From assembly GCF_000014265.1 (NCBI RefSeq), contig NC_008312.1, positions 3,990,001-4,022,000 on the forward strand: a DNA stretch of 32,000 nt, read 5' to 3'. The notes beneath the pieces are model-generated. The model searched no databases. It was not told the origin of the DNA and saw only the letters and a list, made by a program, of their open reading frames with translations. Positions 853-12,789 of this stretch are shown here, one piece after another; within the stretch, counting starts at the first letter, position 1, and each line of letters begins with the position of its first letter. Origin of the DNA: Trichodesmium erythraeum IMS101 (GTDB taxonomy: Bacteria; Cyanobacteriota; Cyanobacteriia; Cyanobacteriales; Microcoleaceae). A program made the translations under genes and the position numbers.

Positions 853-2991
853 TTAACTAACTTGATGAATGAGTGACCAAGCTCGTAAAACTTCTGCAAC
901 ACTCCACGCTTGAGCAATACAACCACGAGGTGTTGTTGGTTCATTACCGTCAAAAATTTCGCTAATACTACCAATACCATGCACCATCAAATGTTTTTCC
1001 ATTGGTTTCAATAACTCTTTAGCTTTTACTGGATCTTTATAAATTCGTAAATGGGCTATAACATAACTACCGATCAACCAACCCCAAACAGTCCCTTGGT
1101 GATAGGCCCTATCACGTTTCTCCATATCTCCTCCATAAATACCCTTATACTCTGGATCATCACTACTAAGACTGCGTAACCCATAGGGAGTTAATAACTT
1201 CTGAGTGCATATCTCCATCACTTGTTTTTCTTGTTCTACTGTCAGAAGGGGAGTATAACTATATTTTTGACTTATTGGTGGTAGTGATAAAGCAAATATT
1301 TGATTAGGTCGCAAAGAAGCATCATTACCACTAGGTGTATCTATGACGTCGTAACAATAACCACTTTTATTATTCCAGAAACGGGGAAAACCTTTATCTT
1401 TGATCAACCTTATTAATTGTTTGTACTTAAGCTCTCTCTTCTTTAACTTTTCGGCAAACCTATACATGATTTGCAAAGCATTATACCACAAAGCACTGAT
1501 TTCAATTGGTTTCCCAATACGCGCTGTTACTGGCGAGTTATCAACTTTGGCATCCATCCAAGTAATTTGACTACCTGGTTCACCAGCAAAGATTAAACCA
1601 TCATCAGTATCTAACTTAACGTTGTAACGAGTACCTTTAGAATAGTAGTCAATAATTTCTTCTAGTACTGGAAATAATTGTGCTAATAATTTGTCATCTT
1701 CGGTGGCTTCATAATACGCACGAATGGCTTCAAAATACCATAGTGTTGTATCTACAGTATTATAAGTTGGTGTTCCACCACTTTCTGGGAAGTTGTTAGG
1801 TAACATTCCCTCTTTGACATATTTGGCAAAGGTTTGAAGAATGGAACGTGCTACATCAAATTGCTTTGTACAGATGGTTAAACCTGGTAAGCTAATCATT
1901 GTATCTCGCCCCCAGTCTTGAAACCAATGATAACCTGCAATGATGGTTTTCCCTTCTGTATGTTCAGGAGATTTGCGATCAACTATAAATTGGTTCGCTG
2001 CTAATACTAACTGCTTGATCCATTCTGGTGTTCCTTTGTCATTAGCAGAGGATATCGATGCAGAGGATATCGATTTTTTCTGGGTTGATATTTTTGATGG
2101 ACTTGATAGTGGATCAATTGTTTTTTTTTGTTGTACTTGGGATATTTGAGGGTTAGCAAATTTTTGTATGATCTTTTGTTCGTAAGCCAGACGAGATGCT
2201 AAAGCTTCTTCACCATTAGTAGTAGGATTTTCTTTTGTGCTAGCAACTATAGTTAGAGATTTTCCTACTTCTAATTGAGCATTGAGGGTGATAGCGTTTA
2301 GGTGGTCTTCTATTTCCTCTAGCCCCCGATATTTTTCTATTGCTAGGTTAAACCCGTAATACCAATTGTTAGCATGTGTACATACTAAGGTTTTTTCGTC
2401 TATTTGAGGATGTGTCAGTAGATATAGGGGTGTAGCTTCAGGAAAAGGTTGTACACATACCCCTTTGTTAGCTTTCTTGATGTTGATATACCAGTCATTT
2501 GCATTATTTGCATAGGTATGATCATGATGCTCTCTATGGTTAATTAATGCTTTTATAACTAAATTTAATGGTTCGCTACCACTGCGTAGGTTATAATGAA
2601 TGTAAGTTGTATTTTCTCCTTGCTCCATCCAGATTCGTTTTTCTAATACTATGTCCGCAAATTTAAATTTCCATACTGCTATTGTTCCTTCTAGATAAAA
2701 TTTTTCGACTTTTTTGTAACCTTCTGGATTTATTGATCCGTTTGCCCAACGGTTACAATATAGTGGGAAGTTTTGATTTTTATATTTAGCCGTTTCGTCT
2801 AATTTTGTTAGTAGTAGTGTACGTCCTAATGGGGGCTGGAGAGCTGCTATTAGTAGTCCGTGATAACGACGAGTTAGGAGTTGGGCTATGGTACTGGAAG
2901 CGTAACCTCCTATTCCGTTTGTGACTAACCATTCTTGTGACTCAGCTATGTTGAGATTACTACAATTTTCTCGTTCAAAACTTATAACCAT
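853..2991 (-). CDS. glycogen debranching enzyme, archaeal-type GDE / amylo-alpha-1,6-glucosidase family
   Basis: 712-aa ORF. The N-terminal part (WLVTNGIGGYASSTI...RRYHGLL) is typical of the GDE N-terminal domain. The C-terminal part carries the amylo-alpha-1,6-glucosidase signature GYHWFQDWGRDTMISLPGL and a (alpha/alpha)6-barrel-like tail. A Ser/Lys-rich low-complexity linker separates the two parts. Confidence 0.9.
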   Translation of the reverse strand: MVISFERENCSNLNIAESQEWLVTNGIGGYASSTIAQLLTRRYHGLLIAALQPPLGRTLLLTKLDETAKYKNQNFPLYCNRWANGSINPEGYKKVEKFYLEGTIAVWKFKFADIVLEKRIWMEQGENTTYIHYNLRSGSEPLNLVIKALINHREHHDHTYANNANDWYINIKKANKGVCVQPFPEATPLYLLTHPQIDEKTLVCTHANNWYYGFNLAIEKYRGLEEIEDHLNAITLNAQLEVGKSLTIVASTKENPTTNGEEALASRLAYEQKIIQKFANPQISQVQQKKTIDPLSSPSKISTQKKSISSASISSANDKGTPEWIKQLVLAANQFIVDRKSPEHTEGKTIIAGYHWFQDWGRDTMISLPGLTICTKQFDVARSILQTFAKYVKEGMLPNNFPESGGTPTYNTVDTTLWYFEAIRAYYEATEDDKLLAQLFPVLEEIIDYYSKGTRYNVKLDTDDGLIFAGEPGSQITWMDAKVDNSPVTARIGKPIEISALWYNALQIMYRFAEKLKKRELKYKQLIRLIKDKGFPRFWNNKSGYCYDVIDTPSGNDASLRPNQIFALSLPPISQKYSYTPLLTVEQEKQVMEICTQKLLTPYGLRSLSSDDPEYKGIYGGDMEKRDRAYHQGTVWGWLIGSYVIAHLRIYKDPVKAKELLKPMEKHLMVHGIGSISEIFDGNEPTTPRGCIAQAWSVAEVLRAWSLIHQVS
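2045..2074. repeat. perfect 15-bp tandem duplication inside the debranching-enzyme CDS
   Basis: GCAGAGGATATCGAT occurs twice back to back (2045-2059 and 2060-2074). It is in frame and gives SISSA-SISSA in the low-complexity interdomain linker. Confidence 0.9.
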
Positions 2992-3145
2992 AAAAATATT
3001 ACTTACTTACAATACATTTACATATAGTTGTTCCAGAGTTTTTTTTGACATCTTCCCCGGCTGTTAGACGCACTTAAACAACTGAGCTATACCTCCGATC
3101 CGGGTTGATATTGCGCAGGCTGCTGCACCCAGCACCTACCCCGAG

Positions 3146-3182
3146 CAGAGGTGAGTTACACTTGCCTCCACCTCTGTTTTTT
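3146..3182 (+). terminator. orphan Rho-independent terminator at the end of a GC-rich island
   Basis: An 8-bp stem CAGAGGTG (3146-3153) / CACCTCTG (3169-3176) with a 15-nt loop is followed directly by T6 (3177-3182). No plus-strand ORF lies upstream, because the neighbouring gene is divergent on the minus strand. Confidence 0.45.
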
Positions 3183-3968
3183 ATCTCCGAATACCGCTTT
3201 GTGATTAATCAATAAACTCAATTATAACATAATGTTTTTGAAAAAACAACTAATTGTATATAAAAAAAACAATTGGGTGATTTTTTTTACTCTATTTTTC
3301 TCTAATATATCTAGGTTTTTTTCTTTCTGATTATTTCTATCTCTTAGCTGCGAGTATTTTTTTTTGCACTTTTATTGTTACACTCTAAGGCTCTTATATT
3401 AAGTTAAATTATACTGATCATAATATTATCTATTACAATTTTTTTGGGAATGCAGTTCTTTTTTTTTTGAGCTTCACAATATCAAGATTCTACTTCTTTG
3501 ATGTTGTTTTTGCTCAGGGATATGAAATTACTTTTTCTTTTTATCAATGAGACTTTTGAATGAGACTTTTGTTAGTTGAATAAAAAGTCATGTGTATAGA
3601 CAGACTTCCCTCATTAACATCTTTATGTTATCAGATTTTTTTGTGATTGCCAAGTGTTTCTTCTTTTTTTGGTGCTTCATACAATGAGAAATAGATTGGG
3701 GTTTTCTTAGTGAATAGCTCCATCAGTTCAATGAGACTTTTGTTTATTGAATAAAAAGTCATATAAAGAAGCAAAGCTATTTTTATAGTAATTAAATCAT
3801 CAGAAGTTAAATTTTTAAAATCCAAGTTTTTTTGAGCTTCAGGATAGAGCTTAAGAAAATAAAAAAACTCCTGGTCAATGACTAGATGTAGATGTGAATT
3901 TTGAGGTTTGCGATCGCTGAATATTGATAGTTTAGTTTCTCAGAGTAGGTTGATGTGCTTTAGGTAAG

Positions 3969-4072
3969 AAAAAAAAAGAGATTGAAGTTCCCTTGGTCGA
4001 TGGTTCCATAAGTTCAATGGGATTTTAGGTGAATTGAATAAAAAGTCATATATAGGGGTAAGTTAATCCTTA
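3969..4072 (-). ncRNA. candidate ~100-nt small RNA / micropeptide transcript (array unit B)
   Basis: Minus strand: TTAAAA (4106-4101), 17 nt, TATAAT (4083-4078). Then follows a conserved block with the 11-codon ORF MTFYSIHLKSH. Then comes the hairpin ATTGAA...TTCAAT and T9 (plus-strand A-run 3969-3977). This is a prediction from sequence only. Confidence 0.3.
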
Positions 4073-4228
4073 TAATAATTATATCATCAGAAGTTGAATT
4101 TTTTAAAATCCTACCCTTTAAAATTTTCTTTTGGGTGCTTAAGAAGATGAAAAAAAGCTAGTCAATGACTAAGGCGGAATGTTGATGGCTTAGTTTTCTC
4201 AGAGCAGGTTGGTATGCTTCAGAGAATG

Positions 4229-4331
4229 AAAAAAAAAAGATTGAAGTTCCTTTGGTCGATGCTTCTATCAGTTCAACGGGACTTTATGTTAGTTGAATAA
4301 AAAGTCATATATATAGTCAAGTAGACCCCTA
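4229..4331 (-). ncRNA. candidate ~100-nt small RNA / micropeptide transcript (array unit C)
   Basis: Minus strand: TTGAAA (4365-4360), exactly 17 nt, TATAAT (4342-4337). Then follows a conserved block with the 11-codon ORF MTFYSTNIKSR. Then comes the hairpin GATAGAAG/CTTCAATC (one mismatch) directly followed by T10 (plus-strand A-run 4229-4238). This is a prediction from sequence only. Confidence 0.35.
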
Positions 4332-4706
4332 TAATAATTATATCATCAGAAGTTGAATTTTTCAAATCCTACCGATTGAAGTTTTTGTTTTGGTGCTTAA
4401 GAAAATGAAAAGCCTATTCCATGACTAGATGTGAATTTTGAGGTGTGCGATCGCTGAATATTGATGGTTTTGTATTTTATCATCAGCCTTTTGAGCTTAT
4501 TGAGTTATCAGTTATATTATGTGTGCTTAAATAGTTACAAATAACGAGTATAGCCAGGAGTTAAAAGTTAGGAGTCGAGAGTTAGGTAGGTGGAGGTATG
4601 GGAGGAAAGAGGAGAAAAAGTAAAGTATAAAAATTTTTTTTGAAAACTAATTAAGTAGATATAATATTAATTATTTATTTGAAAAAAATTTGAAAAAAAT
4701 AAGAGA

Positions 4707-5174
4707 ATGAAACGAATTATTTTTACCTGTCTAATAGGAATAATAACCCTAACTACAACTCCCCTAATATTGTTACTATTACCACAAGGTAGTTATGCTC
4801 AAACTTGAAATTCTCAGGCAGAAAAATTAGATAAACTACTAAAAACAGCACTGTAACAAATAGGGCAATACCAATATCAGAAGTCTATAGAAAGGTTTCA
4901 ACAAGTTTTAGTTATTCCCATGAAAATTCTAGAGGGAGAAAAGGAGGCGATGGCTGACTTTGGTATTGGTTATGTTTCCGACAAAATAGGTCAACCCCAA
5001 AAGACATTAAAATATTATGAAAAAGGTTTACCCATTTTGCCAGAAGTGGGCGATCGCTCAGAAAAAGCTACTACTTTGAATAATATTGTCGTAATTTACG
5101 GAGATAGTAACCAAGCAGAAAAAAACTATAAACAACTAGAAAAAGTCATTTGGGAGGCTAATTTCTTCTTCTAG
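4707..5174 (+). pseudogene. TPR-repeat protein with signal peptide, inactivated by two in-frame stops
   Basis: The ATG at 4707 opens MKRIIFTCLIGIITLTTTPLILLLLPQGSYAQT, a signal-peptide-like sequence. The same frame continues into track ORF 4920..5174, which is TPR-like (KTLKYYEKGLPI...ATTLNNI). It is interrupted by TGA at 4806-4808 and TAA at 4854-4856. Confidence 0.75.
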
Positions 5175-6351: not shown

Positions 6352-9300
6352 ATGGGATCAGCAGGATCAATAACAAATACTCAAATAGTTACAAGGAGAA
6401 TAAATGGTGTTCTCATACGAGGTGTCATTGATGATAATGGTGAGTTTATATCATTACAACCAATACCAACACCGGAACCAACACCGGAACCAACACTAGC
6501 GCCAACACCAGCACCAACACCAGCACCAACACTAGCGCCAACACCAGCACCAACACCAGCACCAACACCAGCACCAACACTAGCGCCAATACCAGCACCA
6601 ATACCAGCACCAACAATAGCACCAACACCACCTGTTGTTACACCAGCACCAACACCAGCACCAACACCAGCACCAATACCAACAACACCAGATGGTAGAG
6701 AGATAATTCAAATAGGTGATATGTTCGGTGTGTTTGATGAAAATAACAATTTTGTCATACTAAATATAGTAGAAGCAACAGAAACAGAGGCACCAACACC
6801 GGAACCAACAACGGAACCAACACCAGCACCAATACCAACAACACCAGATGGTAGAGAGATAATTCAAATAGGTGATATGTTCGGTGTATTTGATGAGAAT
6901 AACGACTTGGTCATAGTAAATTTAGTAGAGGAAACAGACGGAGCACCAGCACCAACACCACCTGTTGTTACACCAGCACCAGCACCAACACCACCTGTTG
7001 TTACACCAGCACCAGCACCAGCACCAACACCACCTGTTGTTATACCAGCACCAGCACCAACACCACCTGTTGTTACACCAGCACCAACACCCACAGCACC
7101 GGGAGGAGGTATTTTGCTTCCAGGGGGAGAAGTAGGGGGCACTGAGGAAGAGGAACTAGTATTTGGCAGTGCTTTCACCGATACATTTTTCGGACTTGGT
7201 GGCAATGATACTGTATTTGGGCAAGGAGAAAGTGACTCTATACTTGGCCAAGGAGGTAACGACCAAATTAATGGTAACCGGGGAAATGATACGGTTAGTG
7301 GTGGTGTAGGAAATGATAGTATACGGGGTGGAAGAGATGCTGACTCGCTTCTCGGTGATGCTGGAAATGATATAGTTTTAGGTGATCGTGATTTAGATAC
7401 AATACGAGGGGGAGAAGGTAGAGATACTATTTATGGTGGTAAGGAAAACGATGATGTAGCAGGAGGAGAAGACAACGATTTTGTTTCAGGAGATGTTGGT
7501 GATGATATTGTAGTCGGTGATGGGGGGAATGATACTCTTCTAGGTCAGAGTGGCTTTGATACAATTTCTGGGGGTTTAGGTTTTGATATCATTAGTGGTG
7601 GTCAAGATGCTGATAGTATTTCAGGAAATGAAGATAATGACTCTCTGTCAGGAAACCAAGGTAATGATACTATTGATGGTGGTACAGGGGATGACTCTTT
7701 ATCTGGAGGTAAAGATAATGATTTGTTATTAGGAGGTGAAGGTAGGGATACTATCAATGGGGAGCGACAAAATGATACTGTTGATGGTATGGAAGAAAAT
7801 GATTTCCTCTCAGGGGGTAAGGGAAATGATTCTGTTGATGGAGGTCAGGGTGACGATCTATTGATAGGTGGTAGAGGTGATGATACTTTGACTGGAGGTG
7901 AGGGTCAAGATAGTTTTGTAATTATAGATTTTGAGGAATCTGATAATTTATATACTGTTACTGACTTTAATACGGCAGAAGACCTTATTAGTTTGGAAGG
8001 TGGTCTAAGGTTTGAAGACTTAGCAATATCTGATGATGGTGGTGACACTGTTATTCGAAATGCCAACGATGATATTTTAGCTATTTTAACTGGAGTTGAT
8101 AGTACAACTCTTAATTCAAGGAACTTTTTTCCTACTCCAAGAGATATAGAACCAGAGCCGGAACCAGACCCAGCACCGGAACCAGAGCCGGAACCAGACC
8201 CAGCACCGGAACCAGAGCCGGAACCAGACCCGGAACCAACACCAGAACCAGACCCGGAACCAACACCAGACCCAACACCAGACCCGGAACCAACACCAGA
8301 CCCAGAACCAGATCCGGAACCAACACCAGACCCAACACCAGACCCGGAACCAACACCAGACCCAACACCAGACCCGGAACCAACACCAGACCCAACACCA
8401 GACCCAGAACCAGAACCAATACCTCCAGATCCAGGTGATATAACGCCACCCGATCTGAATGAACCTCCCACTGACATTCTGTTAGATCGGAACAGTGTGC
8501 CAGAAAATAGTGAAGCAGGTACAGTTATTGGTACATTTACTACAGAAGATTTAGATGTGGATGATTCTCATGAATATAGATTAATTGATAATGCTGACGG
8601 ACGGTTTGCTCTTGATCAGAAGAATAATCAGCTGGTTGTAGGGGAGGGAGCAAATCTTGACTTTGAAAAACAAGAAAGCTTTGATATTCGAGTTAGAACT
8701 TTTGACAGTGCGGCAGAAATTTTCACGAAGTCATTTACTATTAGTTTGACCAATGTCAACGACCCACCAGAAATTATAGTTGCGGAGGAACAACAACCTG
8801 TTAACGAAGGTGAACAGCTAGAAATTGTTGGTATTGAGGTTACTGACCCTGATGTGGGAGAGGAAGAAGTCGAAGTGACTCTAGAAACTACTAATTCCAC
8901 AACTAGTCAGAGTAACTTAACCCTTGACTCTAATTCTAGTATCACTTTTACAACTGGTGATGGGGAAGCAGATAGTCGGATGGTATTTAAAGGAACTTTA
9001 GAAAATATCAATGAATCTATTAAGACCCTCACTTATACTGGAAAAAAATCTGGTAGTGATTTTATTAGTATCACTGTCAATGACGAAGGAAATACAGGGG
9101 AAGGGGATGCTCAAACTGATACTGCATTAATTGATATTAGTATCAATGATTTTCCTGTGGTGGAAACAAATAGGGAGTTGGTAGTAAAGAGAGGGGAAAC
9201 GACAATAATAGAGAATACTTTCCTAGAAACAACTGATAATAGTAAAACTTCCTTAATATATAAGGTGACAGAGTTGCCAAGTCGTGGTAAACTGCTATTT

Positions 9301-12300
9301 AATGGAGGGACTTTCACCAGTTTTACTCAGGATGATATAGATGATGGTTTCTTAAGTTATAAACATACTCAAAAAAATACAAAAAATGATTCCTTTAGTT
9401 TTAGTGTGTCCGATCAAGTGGGAGCAGAAACAACAGATACATTCAATATTCGAGTCAACGTAGCACCAAATCTGACTACCAATAATTTAACTGCTATTGA
9501 AAGGACTGAGGTAGAAATTACTAACGAAAATCTACTGGCAGAAGATCCTGATACTGATACAGATGCAGCAACTCTAATTTATGAACTGACTGAAGTACCA
9601 AATGCGGGAATCTTAAAACTAGATAACGATACTCTAGAACTAGCAAATACTTTCACTCAAAAAGATATTAACCGAGGAAATCTCACTTACGAAGGTGAAG
9701 AAGTTGGTATAGATACATTTAGTTATGTGGTTACAGACCAAGACGGCGGTACTACCAGTGGGTTCTTAAATATTGATGTTGAAGCTGCCAATACTGCTCC
9801 AGAAGCAAAAGATGATGAATTTGAAACAAATGAAGATACAGTAAAAACTATTGATAAATCTGAGTTATTAGCAAATGATGAAGATCTTGAGGGAGGTGAA
9901 CTTACAATTCCTGAGTTTGCTGACAATACTACTAATGGTAGATTAGAAGAAACAGCAGATCAATTCATTTATACCCCTAATCAGAATTTCAGTGGTTCAG
10001 AAAGTTTCACTTATACTGTTGAAGATAACAAAGGGTTAACAGATACAGGGAAGGTAATTATTAATATTATTCCTGTGGCTGATACTCCTAACCTAGAGAT
10101 ATCTACACCTACTGTATCGGGAACAGATCAAGAAGAATTACCACTAGATATAGCTGCTAGCTTAGGAGATACGAGCGGTTCCGAAACTCTATCCATTACT
10201 ATTTCAGGAGTGCCAGATGGAGTAAGTCTTTCAGCGGGAACAGAGCAAGGTGGTGGTACTTGGGAATTGACTCTGGAAGAATTAGATAATTTAACCATTT
10301 TACCTCCTAAAGGCCAAGAGACAGGAACGACATTGCGTTTTGATTTAATAGTGACAGCGACAGCGACTGAAACTGAAACGGCAAATAATAATACCAATGC
10401 TCAAACAGGTACTATATCTGTGGAAGTAGAAGCATTAAACAATGCACCAGTGCTAACAGACTCAGGAGATATAACCCTAAATACTATTAATGAAAATCAG
10501 TTTAATAATGCAGGTACTCGCATTGCCAAAATTATTGATGGTGCAGTCACTGATGATGATGGTGGAGCGAGCAAGGGAATAGCTATTACTGAAATTGATA
10601 ATAGCAAAGGTATATGGGAATATTCAGTTGATGATGGGGACAACTGGGTAGAGGTTAGTAATAGTAGTACTACTTTACTAACAGCTACAGATAGCGATCG
10701 CCTACGTTTTGTTCCTGAAACCGACTTTTTTGGCAAGAAGAGCATTAAATTCCGTGGTTGGGATACGACGGATGGTAGCAGTAACACAACTCAGTTAACA
10801 GAAGTTTTGGCCACAGGTGATACAAATGCTTTTAGTGAAAATATTGGTTCTGCTAACATCTTAGTTAACGACATCCCTGAAATTAGTAGGAATAAGGAAC
10901 TAGTTATCAACTTTGGAGAAACAAAAATCATAGCTAAAAATTTATTACAAACAACTGACGGGGATAACGGTACAAATACCTTTACTTACACAATAACTCA
11001 GGAAGCAACAGCAGGAATATTGCAACTAGAGGATAACCCAACCCAGAGTTTCACTCAAGAAGATATTAATAGTGGTTTAGTTATCTATGAGCAGAAGGCT
11101 AGTAATACAAAGGATGATTCGTTTAGTTTCAGAGTTATTGATGTTGATGGGGGTAGAGTTAAAGACACTTTTAATATTCGAGTGAATGATCCTCCTGTTG
11201 GGACAACCACAGATCTAAATGTTACTATTGGTGAAACTAAGGTTATAGCTCAAGAAAATCTCCTATTTATCGACCCTGATGTGGAAGATGCTCAACCTGC
11301 TTCCCTAGAATATACTCTGACTGAACTGCCGAGTTTAGGGCAACTGCAGCAGGGAGAGGAAATTTTAACAATAGACAGCACATTCACTCAGGAAAATCTG
11401 GATAATGGAGAAATCAGCTATGCAACTACTACTGAGAGTATTGGCACTGATAGCTTGAAATTTCTAGTGACAGACCAAGACGGAGGAATTACCAATGAGT
11501 TGTTAAATATCAATGTCATCCAGGGGAACCGAGCCCCTCGAGTAGAAGAGGATAAATTGGTCACCTTGGAGGAAGATACTACTAAGACCTTGGATATTCT
11601 AGAGCCCATTGACCCTGATGGTGATCTTTTTACTATAACTGTTGACAGTATTCCTGATCCTGAAATAGGGCAAGTAGTATTGAACAATAATACTAATACT
11701 GCCCTAACTATTGGCCAACAGTTAAGGACTGGTGAACTAACATCATTAACGTTTATTCCTGTTGAAAATGCTAATGGAAATGCAGGAACTTTCAGCTATA
11801 TAGTTGATGATGGCAATGATGAAAATAATTCTGCTACTCAAGTTATTAGTATTGATGTCACTTCTATCAATGACCCGCCCATTGCTGTTAATGATGGAGT
11901 AGTATCAGTATTTACTAGCTTGGACAATTCACTAACAATTAATATCTATGCCAATGATAGTGATGGACCAGAACCCCTATCAATTATTGGTCTCAGTAAC
12001 GATGATGATGTTCTGGGTATTTCAGCAATTGTGGAGGGTTCTCAAGTTCAATACACGTCATTAGAAACCAGGGGAACAGGTGTGGATACCTTAGAATACA
12101 CTGTAACTGATGGTATTGATCAAGTCACTGCCAATGCTATAGTGAATGTTCTCAATGTTACTGATGAGGCTGACTCTTTGCCGGGTGGTGAATTTAATGA
12201 TAATTTTGATGGTGATCAAGGGGATGATACTCTTGAAGGTTTAGGAGGTAACGACACCTTGACTGGAAATGATGATAATGACAGCTTAGTAGGTGGTGAG

Positions 12301-12789
12301 GGTGATGACTCTATAGATGGCGGTGAAGGTGATGATACCTTATTTGGCGGTCTCGGAGCAGATATTCTGTCTGATGATAATGGGGACAATACCTTTGTTT
12401 ATACCAGGGCTGATGATGGCAGTGAGGCTAAGTTTAATGCGGCTAATGCTACTTCTATTAGTACTGCTATTGATAATGGTTTGTTTGATCGCATTACTGG
12501 TTTTGATGGCTTAGGTGAAATTGGTGGGGATACTCTTGCATTCTCTAGTGAAATTATTTCATCTCTAGATAATATTGCCACTAACGTACAAACTACGGAT
12601 ATTTCTGAAAATGTTTTAAATTCTGGAACTCCTGGTTTATTTGCGTATGAAGTAGAAGATAAAACTTATTTAATTTATGATGCTAATGGGGATAATACGG
12701 TTGGTGATGATTCCCAAATTCTAGCAGAATTAGAGGATGTAAGTGGAATTACTGTTGTGGATGTAAATGATGATTTTACTATTATCTAA
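6352..12789 (+). CDS. giant secreted RTX / cadherin-like adhesin (hemolysin-type Ca-binding repeats, cadherin, CSPG-like and Ig-like domains)
   Basis: 2145-aa ORF with AAGAGG 7 nt upstream of the ATG. It contains about 27 GGxGxDxxx nonapeptides (roughly 7150-7910) and a second RTX block (roughly 12180-12390). It has a classical cadherin domain ending VNDPPE (roughly 8440-8770). It has repeated modules with the FTQxDIxxGxLxY...DSFSF motif and NxAP/DPP boundaries. Pro-Thr/Ala and Pro-Glu/Asp linkers join the parts. The C-terminus is acidic then hydrophobic (DVNDDFTII), as in type I secretion substrates. Confidence 0.95.
6466..6690 (+). repeat. coding microsatellite-like tract (6/12-nt CCAACA/CCAGCA units) encoding a PT/PA linker
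   Basis: Near-perfect reiteration of CCAACACCAGCA and variants, translated as TPAPTPAPT. Confidence 0.9.
6670..6941 (+). repeat. 156-bp tandem duplication (two copies) inside the giant RTX gene
   Basis: GCACCAATACCAACAACACCAGATGGTAGAGAGATAATTCAAATAGGTGATATGTTCGGTGT... starts at 6670 and again at 6826. The copies are nearly identical over about 115 bp. Each encodes [21 protein letters not shown]. Confidence 0.9.
8146..8412 (+). repeat. coding 30-nt periodic tract encoding an acidic PE/PD/PT linker
   Basis: GAACCAGACCCAGCACCGGAACCAGAGCCG and GACCCGGAACCAACACCAGACCCAACACCA units are reiterated, translated as [12 protein letters not shown]...[10 protein letters not shown]. Confidence 0.9.

Follow-up and report, generated by a model that had tools for sequence, protein, structure and literature searches.

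The tandem array and its units

The DNA stretch analyzed here, referred to as the window, comprises 32,000 nucleotides (nt) of Trichodesmium erythraeum IMS101 (contig NC_008312.1, positions 3,990,001 to 4,022,000). It carries an array of short repeated units, named C, B, A and 0, which lie 600-1,300 nt 5' of a glycogen debranching enzyme gene and on the same, minus, strand. The 16-nt anchor of these units, TTGAATAAAAAGTCAT, was found on the plus strand as an exact match at 3576, 3747, 4034 and 4293, as the original prediction had stated. The chance expectation is 0.08, and four or more matches occurred in none of 100 dinucleotide shuffles. A scan of the window allowing up to two mismatches gave no additional copies. 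The period between the units is 171-287 bp. Segments 3936-4134 and 4195-4393 form a 199-nt repeat pair with 81% identity at a spacing of 259 bp, and shorter repeat families tie units A and 0 to units B and C. The four units align with one another as proposed; only B and C are complete, and A and 0 are partial. The array was not called by Tandem Repeats Finder because the copies are too diverged and contain insertions and deletions.

The window was also searched with an nhmmer profile made solely from copies in other organisms. The profile matched unit 0 (E 3e-15), unit C (E 2e-14), unit B (E 6e-12), unit A (E 3e-3) and a fifth remnant (E 4e-3), and nothing further was found across the 32 kb. 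The features of the locus are as follows.

853..2991, minus strand: glycogen debranching enzyme (amylo-alpha-1,6-glucosidase, ABG51786.1, identical protein); Pfam GDE_N E 2e-70, GDE_C E 4e-131
3430..3489, minus strand: fifth remnant, promoter only; box attgtgaagctc, A10, -35 CTGCAT 3455-3450, degenerate -10
3575..3691, minus strand: unit 0; box and A-run 3689-3664, core 3591-3575
3746..3862, minus strand: unit A; doubled box, decayed promoter, core 3762-3746; nhmmer match spans only 3806-3747
3969..4032, minus strand: unit B tail; ends with T9 3977-3969, then box 1 at 3970-3952
4033..4049, minus strand: unit B core 17-mer ATGACTTTTTATTCAAT, as read in the sequence
4078..4107, minus strand: unit B promoter; -35 TTAAAA (4106-4101) or TTTAAA, 17/18-bp spacer, TG, -10 TATAAT 4083-4078
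4134..4156, minus strand: unit B upstream box ttttttcatcttcttaagcaccc; beside the nhmmer match 4153-4032, E 6e-12
4230-4211, minus strand: box 1 ttcattctctgaagcatacc; adjoins the unit C T-run
4229..4291, minus strand: unit C tail; holds segments S2 and S3 and an imperfect 8-pair hairpin, and ends with T10 4238-4229
4292..4308, minus strand: unit C core 17-mer ATGACTTTTTATTCAAC, as read in the sequence
4309..4330, minus strand: unit C leader aggggtctacttgactatatat, a fast-evolving segment
4337..4365, minus strand: unit C promoter; -35 TTGAAA 4365-4360, 17-bp spacer, TG 4345-4344, -10 TATAAT 4342-4337
4391-4381, minus strand: unit C A-rich tract, after the upstream box
4392..4412, minus strand: unit C upstream box cttttcattttcttaagcacc; resembles the family box AACATTTTCATTYTNTGAAGCTCC plus A-run, within the nhmmer match 4414-4290, E 2e-14

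The promoters of units C and B were the two top promoter-like sites in 2950-4750 and both are of the extended -10 type with a TG, in agreement with the TTGAAA-17-TATAAT and TTAAAA-17-TATAAT promoters originally assigned to these positions. The unit C promoter scored 11/12 with the TG, has a predicted start near 4330 and coincides in position with the family promoter TTGCAT-17-TGnTAnnAT described below, while the unit B promoter scored 10/12 with the TG and its start is predicted near 4071. Unit A has TTTAAA, a 17-bp spacer and TTTAAT, a -10 that lacks the A at position 2, and it has lost the 3' tail of the B/C type together with the T-run. Unit 0, the core-bearing unit nearest to the debranching enzyme gene, has TTGGCA (3653-3648), a 17-bp spacer and TAACAT (3630-3625) with a TG, and its start is predicted at about 3618. 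The fifth remnant has neither leader nor core, and its nhmmer alignment covers profile positions 8-86. Units A and 0 and the fifth remnant are decayed; B and C are intact.

The conserved ATG opens short reading frames (mini-ORFs, for open reading frames) that encode MTFYSTNIKSR in unit C and MTFYSIHLKSH in unit B and that run for 15 codons in unit 0 and 43 codons in unit A. The unit A mini-ORF is in frame with ORF 3631..3825, bearing out the earlier suggestion that the two are linked, and an exact-protein look-up of this 64-residue ORF returned no record. The T-runs of units C and B, T10 and T9, were likewise present where they had been described. At the upstream edge of the array, a box-like fragment, aataagctcaaaagg, at 4486-4497 on the minus strand corresponds to what had been noted as a partial unit; it was not reported by the profile search.

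The cassette family

A genome scan with the core plus TTGAA as the query, in a listing without IMS101's own copy of the locus, found the motif in 29 genome stretches. The carriers were Okeania (five loci in four assemblies), Trichodesmium sp. MAG_R02, a Microcoleaceae metagenome-assembled genome and an unclassified cyanobacterial metagenome-assembled genome; the other matches were chance-like. The motif was also present in more than 111 stretches in a metagenome scan. Once 11 chance matches were dropped, 160 exact-core units were left, 141 of them non-redundant. A promoter-only profile that did not include the core recovered 191 units. They lie in about 100 loci fetched from Okeania, Trichodesmium and other Microcoleaceae-like DNA; the cassette is widespread in these two genera and in filamentous cyanobacteria related to them.

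About 115 nt 5' of the core are common to all units. The consensus of 130 non-redundant units, with the window excluded, reads AACATTTTCATTTTcTGAAGCTCCTAAAAAAA...GGATTTTCgGTTGCATCCTCAcAAAAATTgTGATATtATAAAAATTATttGGGGTTgTTCGCCCATACGC-ATGACTTTTTATTCAAC. The cassette is thus a module of about 130 bp that consists, in order, of the box AACATTTTCATTYTNTGAAGCTCC, an A-run, a -35 TTGCAT, a 17-bp spacer, the -10 TGnTAnnAT, a leader of about 24 nt and the 17-mer ATGACTTTTTATTCAAC, and the anchor of the array is its 3' end. When the 17 nt that follow the promoter-only profile were compared with the core, 141 of the 191 units agreed at 17/17 positions, 41 at 16/17 and 9 were worse. The conservation of the upstream box is nearly equal to that of the core.

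The sequences 3' of the core were also grouped. The tails of 171 fully flanked copies (the 160 family units and the 11 chance matches) gave 60 clusters, of which 21 had at least two members. The biggest have 40, 35 and 17 members, and the window B/C tail is a cluster of its own, present only at this locus. Since homology breaks after the 17-mer, the constant part is the promoter and 5' end, not a 3' scaffold. At the level of the family, this reverses the layout of a variable 5' seed and a constant 3' scaffold that had been proposed for the array. Another unit follows within 450 nt downstream for 51 of the 160 units, mostly at spacings of 165-404 nt, and the Okeania arrays have four to six units each.

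The -35 was TTGCAT in 82 of 124 units, a TG preceded the -10 in 114 of 124 and the spacer was 17 bp; -10 variants include TATCAT, TATTAT, TAGTAT, TATGAT and TACAAT. Column counts over the 130 non-redundant units showed that -10 positions 1, 2 and 6 and the TG are conserved at 90% or above and position 5 at about 80%, compared with only about 60% and 30% for positions 3 and 4, and that the -35 and spacer are conserved at about 80% or more. Such a position pattern is expected of sigma70-type promoters if promoter function is selected, and the upstream part of the cassette bears the signature of a promoter under selection. The direction of transcription follows from the promoter pattern as well (minus strand in the window), with the predicted start about 24 nt 5' of the core. 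A plus-strand reading was considered and rejected. A 24-codon ORF (MKKKRLKF...) is found solely in unit C and is broken in unit B, and, by eye, there is no plus-strand promoter and the opposite-strand hairpin and T-run of the Okeania units are absent from other lineages.

Other Trichodesmium lineages provided nine syntenic loci, each with these four core-bearing units at unchanged places. The promoter hexamers and cores of these orthologues are unchanged except for a G>T in the unit C -35 of loci L040-42. The leader (22-24 nt) shows 8-10 differences between Trichodesmium species, compared with roughly 2-3% in the flanks, as judged by eye. Moreover, in L040 and L042 (units at about 2664-3025), there is hardly any difference between B and C, unlike in IMS101. 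This indicates gene conversion (concerted evolution) between units, or from other genomic copies. The homogenization of B and C elsewhere means that the leader differences in IMS101 are not stable unit-specific seeds.

The genes that follow the cassette are diverse. Contigs that encode the same debranching enzyme are 100% identical to the window over the array. Furthermore, in three metagenome contigs (L092, L047 and L142), a cassette lies 133, 318 or 359 nt 5' of a debranching orthologue, as measured from the core to the gene. Other organisms, presumably related ones, have thus preserved the link between cassette and debranching gene, which supports the growth of the window array by tandem duplication of a cassette upstream of the gene. 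By eye, a TGnTATAAA is retained in the debranching orthologues some 50 nt 5' of the start codon, so that the cassette probably adds an upstream promoter and is not the sole one. Elsewhere, the cassette heads genes for a ThiS-family protein, an RTX/DUF192 protein, a STAND NTPase, a peroxiredoxin, a GHMP-family kinase, a thioredoxin-TPR protein and a metallophosphoesterase, the last of which starts 8 nt after the core. The Rubisco activase gene is located downstream of arrays in two Okeania assemblies.

The interval from the array to the start codon of the debranching enzyme gene contains a GC-rich block of 143 nt (3040-3182, minus strand). The block folds into three hairpins with a minimum free energy of -51.3 kcal/mol (z -3.5; matched by none of 200 shuffles). 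Its conservation is 99-100% across every syntenic locus of Trichodesmium, and it has no Rfam match. A 79%-identical relative was found in metagenome contig L054 (1-175), just 5' of another cassette copy. The block may be an undescribed structured RNA or a repeat remnant, and part of it looks, by eye, like the 5' half of a tRNA.

Other elements adjoin or interrupt cassettes in several loci. In L007 (Okeania sp. KiyG1; cores 3129, 2064 and 1683), the -35 and -10 of three units are separated by an inserted palindrome of about 45 nt, gcgagtgtgtaattccgagg...cctcggaatgaaagacacac; it looks like a separate small mobile repeat and should inactivate the three promoters. In L026 (Okeania sp. SIO1I7; cores 1528 and 1223), another repeat replaces everything upstream of the predicted start (cATTGGG), with leader and core kept. 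At two Okeania loci and one Trichodesmium locus, the array begins just 3' of a gene of the FGE-sulfatase type (L017, 3344-5188; L026, 2327-4294, a putative one, as the matching ORF; L022, 4831-5781). The FGE-sulfatase domain is C-terminal and the L017 protein also has a kinase domain. This domain class is the target of the diversity-generating retroelement in IMS101 (PMC4143802). Such genes are common and the adjacency may be a coincidence. A group II intron domain V/VI (Rfam RF00029, 46.9 bits) is present at L008 49-126, directly 5' of the Okeania array that precedes Rubisco activase.

The cassette family is apparently undescribed. A full-text literature search with the 16-mer, in DNA and RNA spelling and on both strands, returned no paper, and the locus is not mentioned in the Trichodesmium transcriptome paper (PMC4143802).

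Interpretation of the array

The array probably, though by no means certainly, represents a portable cassette of promoter and leader, of the extended -10 type and specific to this lineage, present in four to five tandem duplicates; the cassette both heads genes and forms gene-less arrays. Units B and C would be active extended -10 promoters giving minus-strand non-coding transcripts from near 4330 and 4071, with the 17-mer placed about 23 nt downstream of their 5' ends. The transcripts would stop leakily at the U9-10 tracts to give RNAs of about 100 nt or, alternatively, would read through the decayed units A and 0 and the fifth remnant toward the debranching gene. The proposal of an array of short small RNA (sRNA) genes may thus be retained insofar as each of B and C resembles a short, independent transcription unit, and given up as regards the seed and scaffold. 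The constraint on the 17-mer is one on its nucleotides and depends neither on coding nor on any fold that could be detected. The 17-mer is best explained as a sequence-specific recognition element for a protein or RNA partner, and would be common to the messenger RNAs (mRNAs) that have the cassette as their 5' untranslated region; candidates for an RNA partner would be transcripts containing GUUGAAUAAAAAGUCAU. Because the 17-mer is shared with the cassette mRNAs, the orphan units would act as promoter dosage, as decoys, or as both.

Several considerations weigh against this interpretation. All loci were ascertained via the core motif, so that the breadth of the family and the invariance of the core are partly biased, and the promoter-only profile corrects this bias solely inside those same loci. 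The production of discrete 100-nt RNAs is uncertain, because a terminator scan of 2950-4750 found zero passing sites and the transcripts fold no better than shuffles. The published differential RNA sequencing (dRNA-seq) of IMS101 excluded RNAs shorter than 300 nt (PMC4143802). Lastly, the 17-mer could exert its role as DNA and not as RNA. Logan contigs that end at window position 4101 were considered as a transcript end and were attributed to assembly breaks at the segment common to B and C.

A more specific proposal, which we hold only tentatively and consider rather unlikely, is that the 17-mer is the tag of a trans-acting factor, an RNA-binding protein or a complementary RNA, that co-ordinates the cassette genes, the gene-less arrays being decoy or sponge RNA genes. 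If this is true, the gene set of the factor would include those for glycogen debranching enzyme, Rubisco activase, thioredoxin, peroxiredoxin and others in Trichodesmium and Okeania, and sponge arrays would explain part of the large, highly transcribed non-coding fraction of Trichodesmium.

The possibility was considered that the element acts at the level of DNA, with the 17-mer, perhaps together with the box, bound by a regulator, recombinase or nucleoid protein and transcription being secondary. A near-invariant, non-palindromic block of 17 bp that has neither supported RNA structure nor coding constraint would fit such a site, as would an upstream box almost as conserved as the core and gene conversion among units. 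However, the fixed distance from a promoter with conserved critical positions argues for reading in the transcript or action on the promoter, and no candidate binding protein is linked to the loci. We regard this explanation as unlikely. Integron attC sites and Fur, NtcA, CRP and Pho boxes were rejected as identities of the element on length or spacing, judged by eye against the consensus sequences.

Of lower and about equal standing are two further explanations. The first is the original one: every unit is a gene for an sRNA of about 100 nt, paralogous to the others, in which a variable 5' seed specific to the unit is joined to a constant 3' scaffold and terminator. In its favor, the predicted promoters are strong, B and C differ chiefly in the 22 nt that follow the predicted start, the tail and T-run are common to both, and a leader that evolves faster than its flanks could reflect diversifying selection on a seed. 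Across the family, however, it is the tail that varies and the 5' end that is constant, the B and C leaders are nearly identical in L040 and L042, and the B/C tail type occurs at this locus only, with no scaffold structure supported. No known RNA family was recognized either. Rfam gave 0 matches in the window at the gathering score and, at E<=10 over 2950-4750, a best E of 0.53, which is at the level of chance; Rfam searches of five related loci or arrays gave no family for the units and a tRNA/tmRNA scan found nothing.

The second is that the cassette is a selfish or neutral repeat without function, either similar to transposable elements of the miniature inverted-repeat type (MITEs) or otherwise mobile, or the decaying product of duplications of the region upstream of the gene. 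The high copy number, the diverse contexts, the visible decay of units A and 0 and of the fifth remnant, and the small repeats that in Okeania insert into or replace cassette parts are all consistent with this explanation. On the other hand, terminal inverted repeats around the units were not found, the units are arrayed in tandem with a period of one whole unit, all Trichodesmium orthologous loci have the same four of them, the link to the debranching gene recurs in three other contigs, and position-specific promoter conservation is unexpected for neutral DNA. A MITE or other small transposable element was rejected since no inverted repeats bracket the units in 3200-4800 and the units abut as whole-unit tandem duplicates. 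A CRISPR array was rejected on the period of 171-287 bp and the homology through most of the unit, the one nearby match to a CRISPR-repeat model being at the level of chance (E 1) and outside the array. An IS200/IS605-type end was considered in view of the cassette end TCAAC and a TnpB gene at one Okeania locus and was rejected, as there is no consistent linkage.

The proposal that the array is a reiterated attenuator is improbable. According to this proposal, segment S1 (core nt 11-17) pairs with S2, or S2 pairs with S3, and the choice controls read-through into the debranching gene, possibly sensed via translation of the mini-ORF. The array is indeed upstream of the gene and on the same strand, the mini-ORF stop lies inside S2 in units B, C and 0, and the S2:S3 helix, which adjoins the U-run, is pairable in 98% of cells across the orthologues. 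However, this helix is almost invariant and the counts are consequently uninformative either way. The co-variation claimed for S1 and S2 was not supported. Nine distinct B/C sequences, drawn from five Trichodesmium lineages, were compared; at the closing pair, one has C-G, two have U-A and six have a C.A mismatch. There was one double change among 180 cells, most pairs never vary, and 393 of 500 shuffles reached the same values. The candidate stems consist of six A/U-rich pairs with a 27-nt loop or of an imperfect eight-pair helix that is 68% paired across the orthologues. Single-sequence folds of the four predicted transcripts gave no structural signal (z +0.6, +1.9, -1.3 and +0.3). Family-wide, the mean pairing probability of S1 was 0.34 compared with 0.39 when the downstream sequence was shuffled, and that of core nt 1-10 was 0.55 compared with 0.52. 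Furthermore, the units nearest to the gene, A and 0, have neither S3 nor the U-run, and the feature is not family-wide.

The S3/T-run terminator likewise found no support. The U-runs (T10 and T9) are present, but the stable G+C-rich hairpin that precedes the U-run of an intrinsic terminator was not found at any site of the scanned region. A T-run of at least 6 within 200 nt follows 19 of the 160 family units, while an A-run follows 89. Conservation of promoter, hairpin and T-run together in genome-wide copies had been expected; the promoter is kept, the hairpin pairing is unsupported and the T-run is rare. We read the T10 and T9 of units C and B as a probable homopolymer expansion from the ATTTT of a second box copy. 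A GACUUUU/AAAAGUC hairpin was seen by eye in the debranching-linked tails of the window, L047 and L142.

Least probable of all is a family of micropeptide genes for MTFYS-type peptides: although a conserved ATG opens a short ORF in every unit, the ORF runs for 6 to more than 50 codons with no favored length among the 141 non-redundant units and there is therefore no conserved peptide, the core is invariant at wobble (synonymous) sites and its common variants change amino acids by our own translation, opposite to the conserved length and residues with synonymous variation of a micropeptide family, and no ribosome-binding motif is evident by eye 5' of the ATG in the consensus.

Comparison with known systems and the remainder of the window

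The portable cassette favored here has features in common with several described systems. NsiR1 is a tandem sRNA array upstream of hetF in heterocyst-forming cyanobacteria, controlled by NtcA/HetR (Ionescu et al. 2010, as described in PMC6596454). In both cases tandem direct repeats lie upstream of a protein-coding gene, and NsiR1 is, by that account, transcribed from the repeats. The window array likewise consists of tandem direct repeats upstream of a gene, its intact units have their own predicted promoters, and each could give a short non-coding RNA. However, there is no sequence or structure match between the two in Rfam, the window host is non-heterocystous, the neighboring gene encodes glycogen debranching enzyme and not hetF, the promoter is a generic extended -10, the cassette is also the 5' region of unrelated genes, and terminators are weak or absent.

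An actuaton is an sRNA unit in sense orientation upstream of a gene, for example Yfr2c (PMC6596454). The cassette resembles it as a promoter-bearing non-coding unit in sense orientation with incomplete termination, directly upstream of a coding gene (133-359 nt from the debranching orthologues), and as a family whose members are both free-standing and gene-attached in variable copy number. It differs in that the window units and their relatives match neither Yfr2-related nor other Rfam models and in that the debranching orthologues seem, by eye, to keep the proximal TGnTATAAA promoter.

Promoter reuse, in which highly similar promoters occur upstream of non-homologous genes within and between genomes, is described in PMC3575422. 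The cassette is similar in being one promoter block before unrelated genes, but it also includes a fixed leader, the 17-mer and the upstream box, forms tandem orphan arrays and has no evident mobility mechanism. Lastly, IMS101 has an array of more than 6 kb with seven tandem repeats of 736-973 bp, the source of a transcript of about 260 nt that is the most abundant non-coding RNA and, by its authors' account, without similar sequence elsewhere (PMC4143802). The organism, the tandem repeats and the promoter in each unit are the same as for the window array, and non-coding transcripts have been demonstrated there. The locus is another one, however, and the units described here measure 171-287 bp and are members of a family dispersed over several genera.

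The T. erythraeum genome is about 40% non-coding, and no bacterium studied is reported to have a larger share of non-coding transcription start sites, which number 1,621 in IMS101 (PMC4143802). The cassette is a concrete and easily searchable element of about 130 bp with a near-invariant 17-nt tag, present in at least 190 units in about 100 fetched loci. Should its units be transcribed as predicted, they would form a new family, of non-coding RNAs or of promoters, with many copies. They would also offer a way to study promoter reuse and concerted evolution in a nitrogen fixer of ecological importance, and would supply a native promoter module of high strength for organisms that are difficult to engineer. 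Even if silent, the cassette would still clearly exemplify a propagating regulatory repeat.

Two other regions of the window were noted. On the plus strand at 4708-5174, an ATG-started frame has a signal-peptide-like start and, by eye, in-frame stops; it is probably a pseudogene, of which only the last 84 codons (4920-5174) are an ORF. Farther along the plus strand, at 6352-12789, lies a 2,145-codon ORF rich in tandem repeats of 12, 27, 30, 33 and 156 bp. The gene that adjoins this ORF in the syntenic contigs has HemolysinCabind and cadherin-type Pfam matches.

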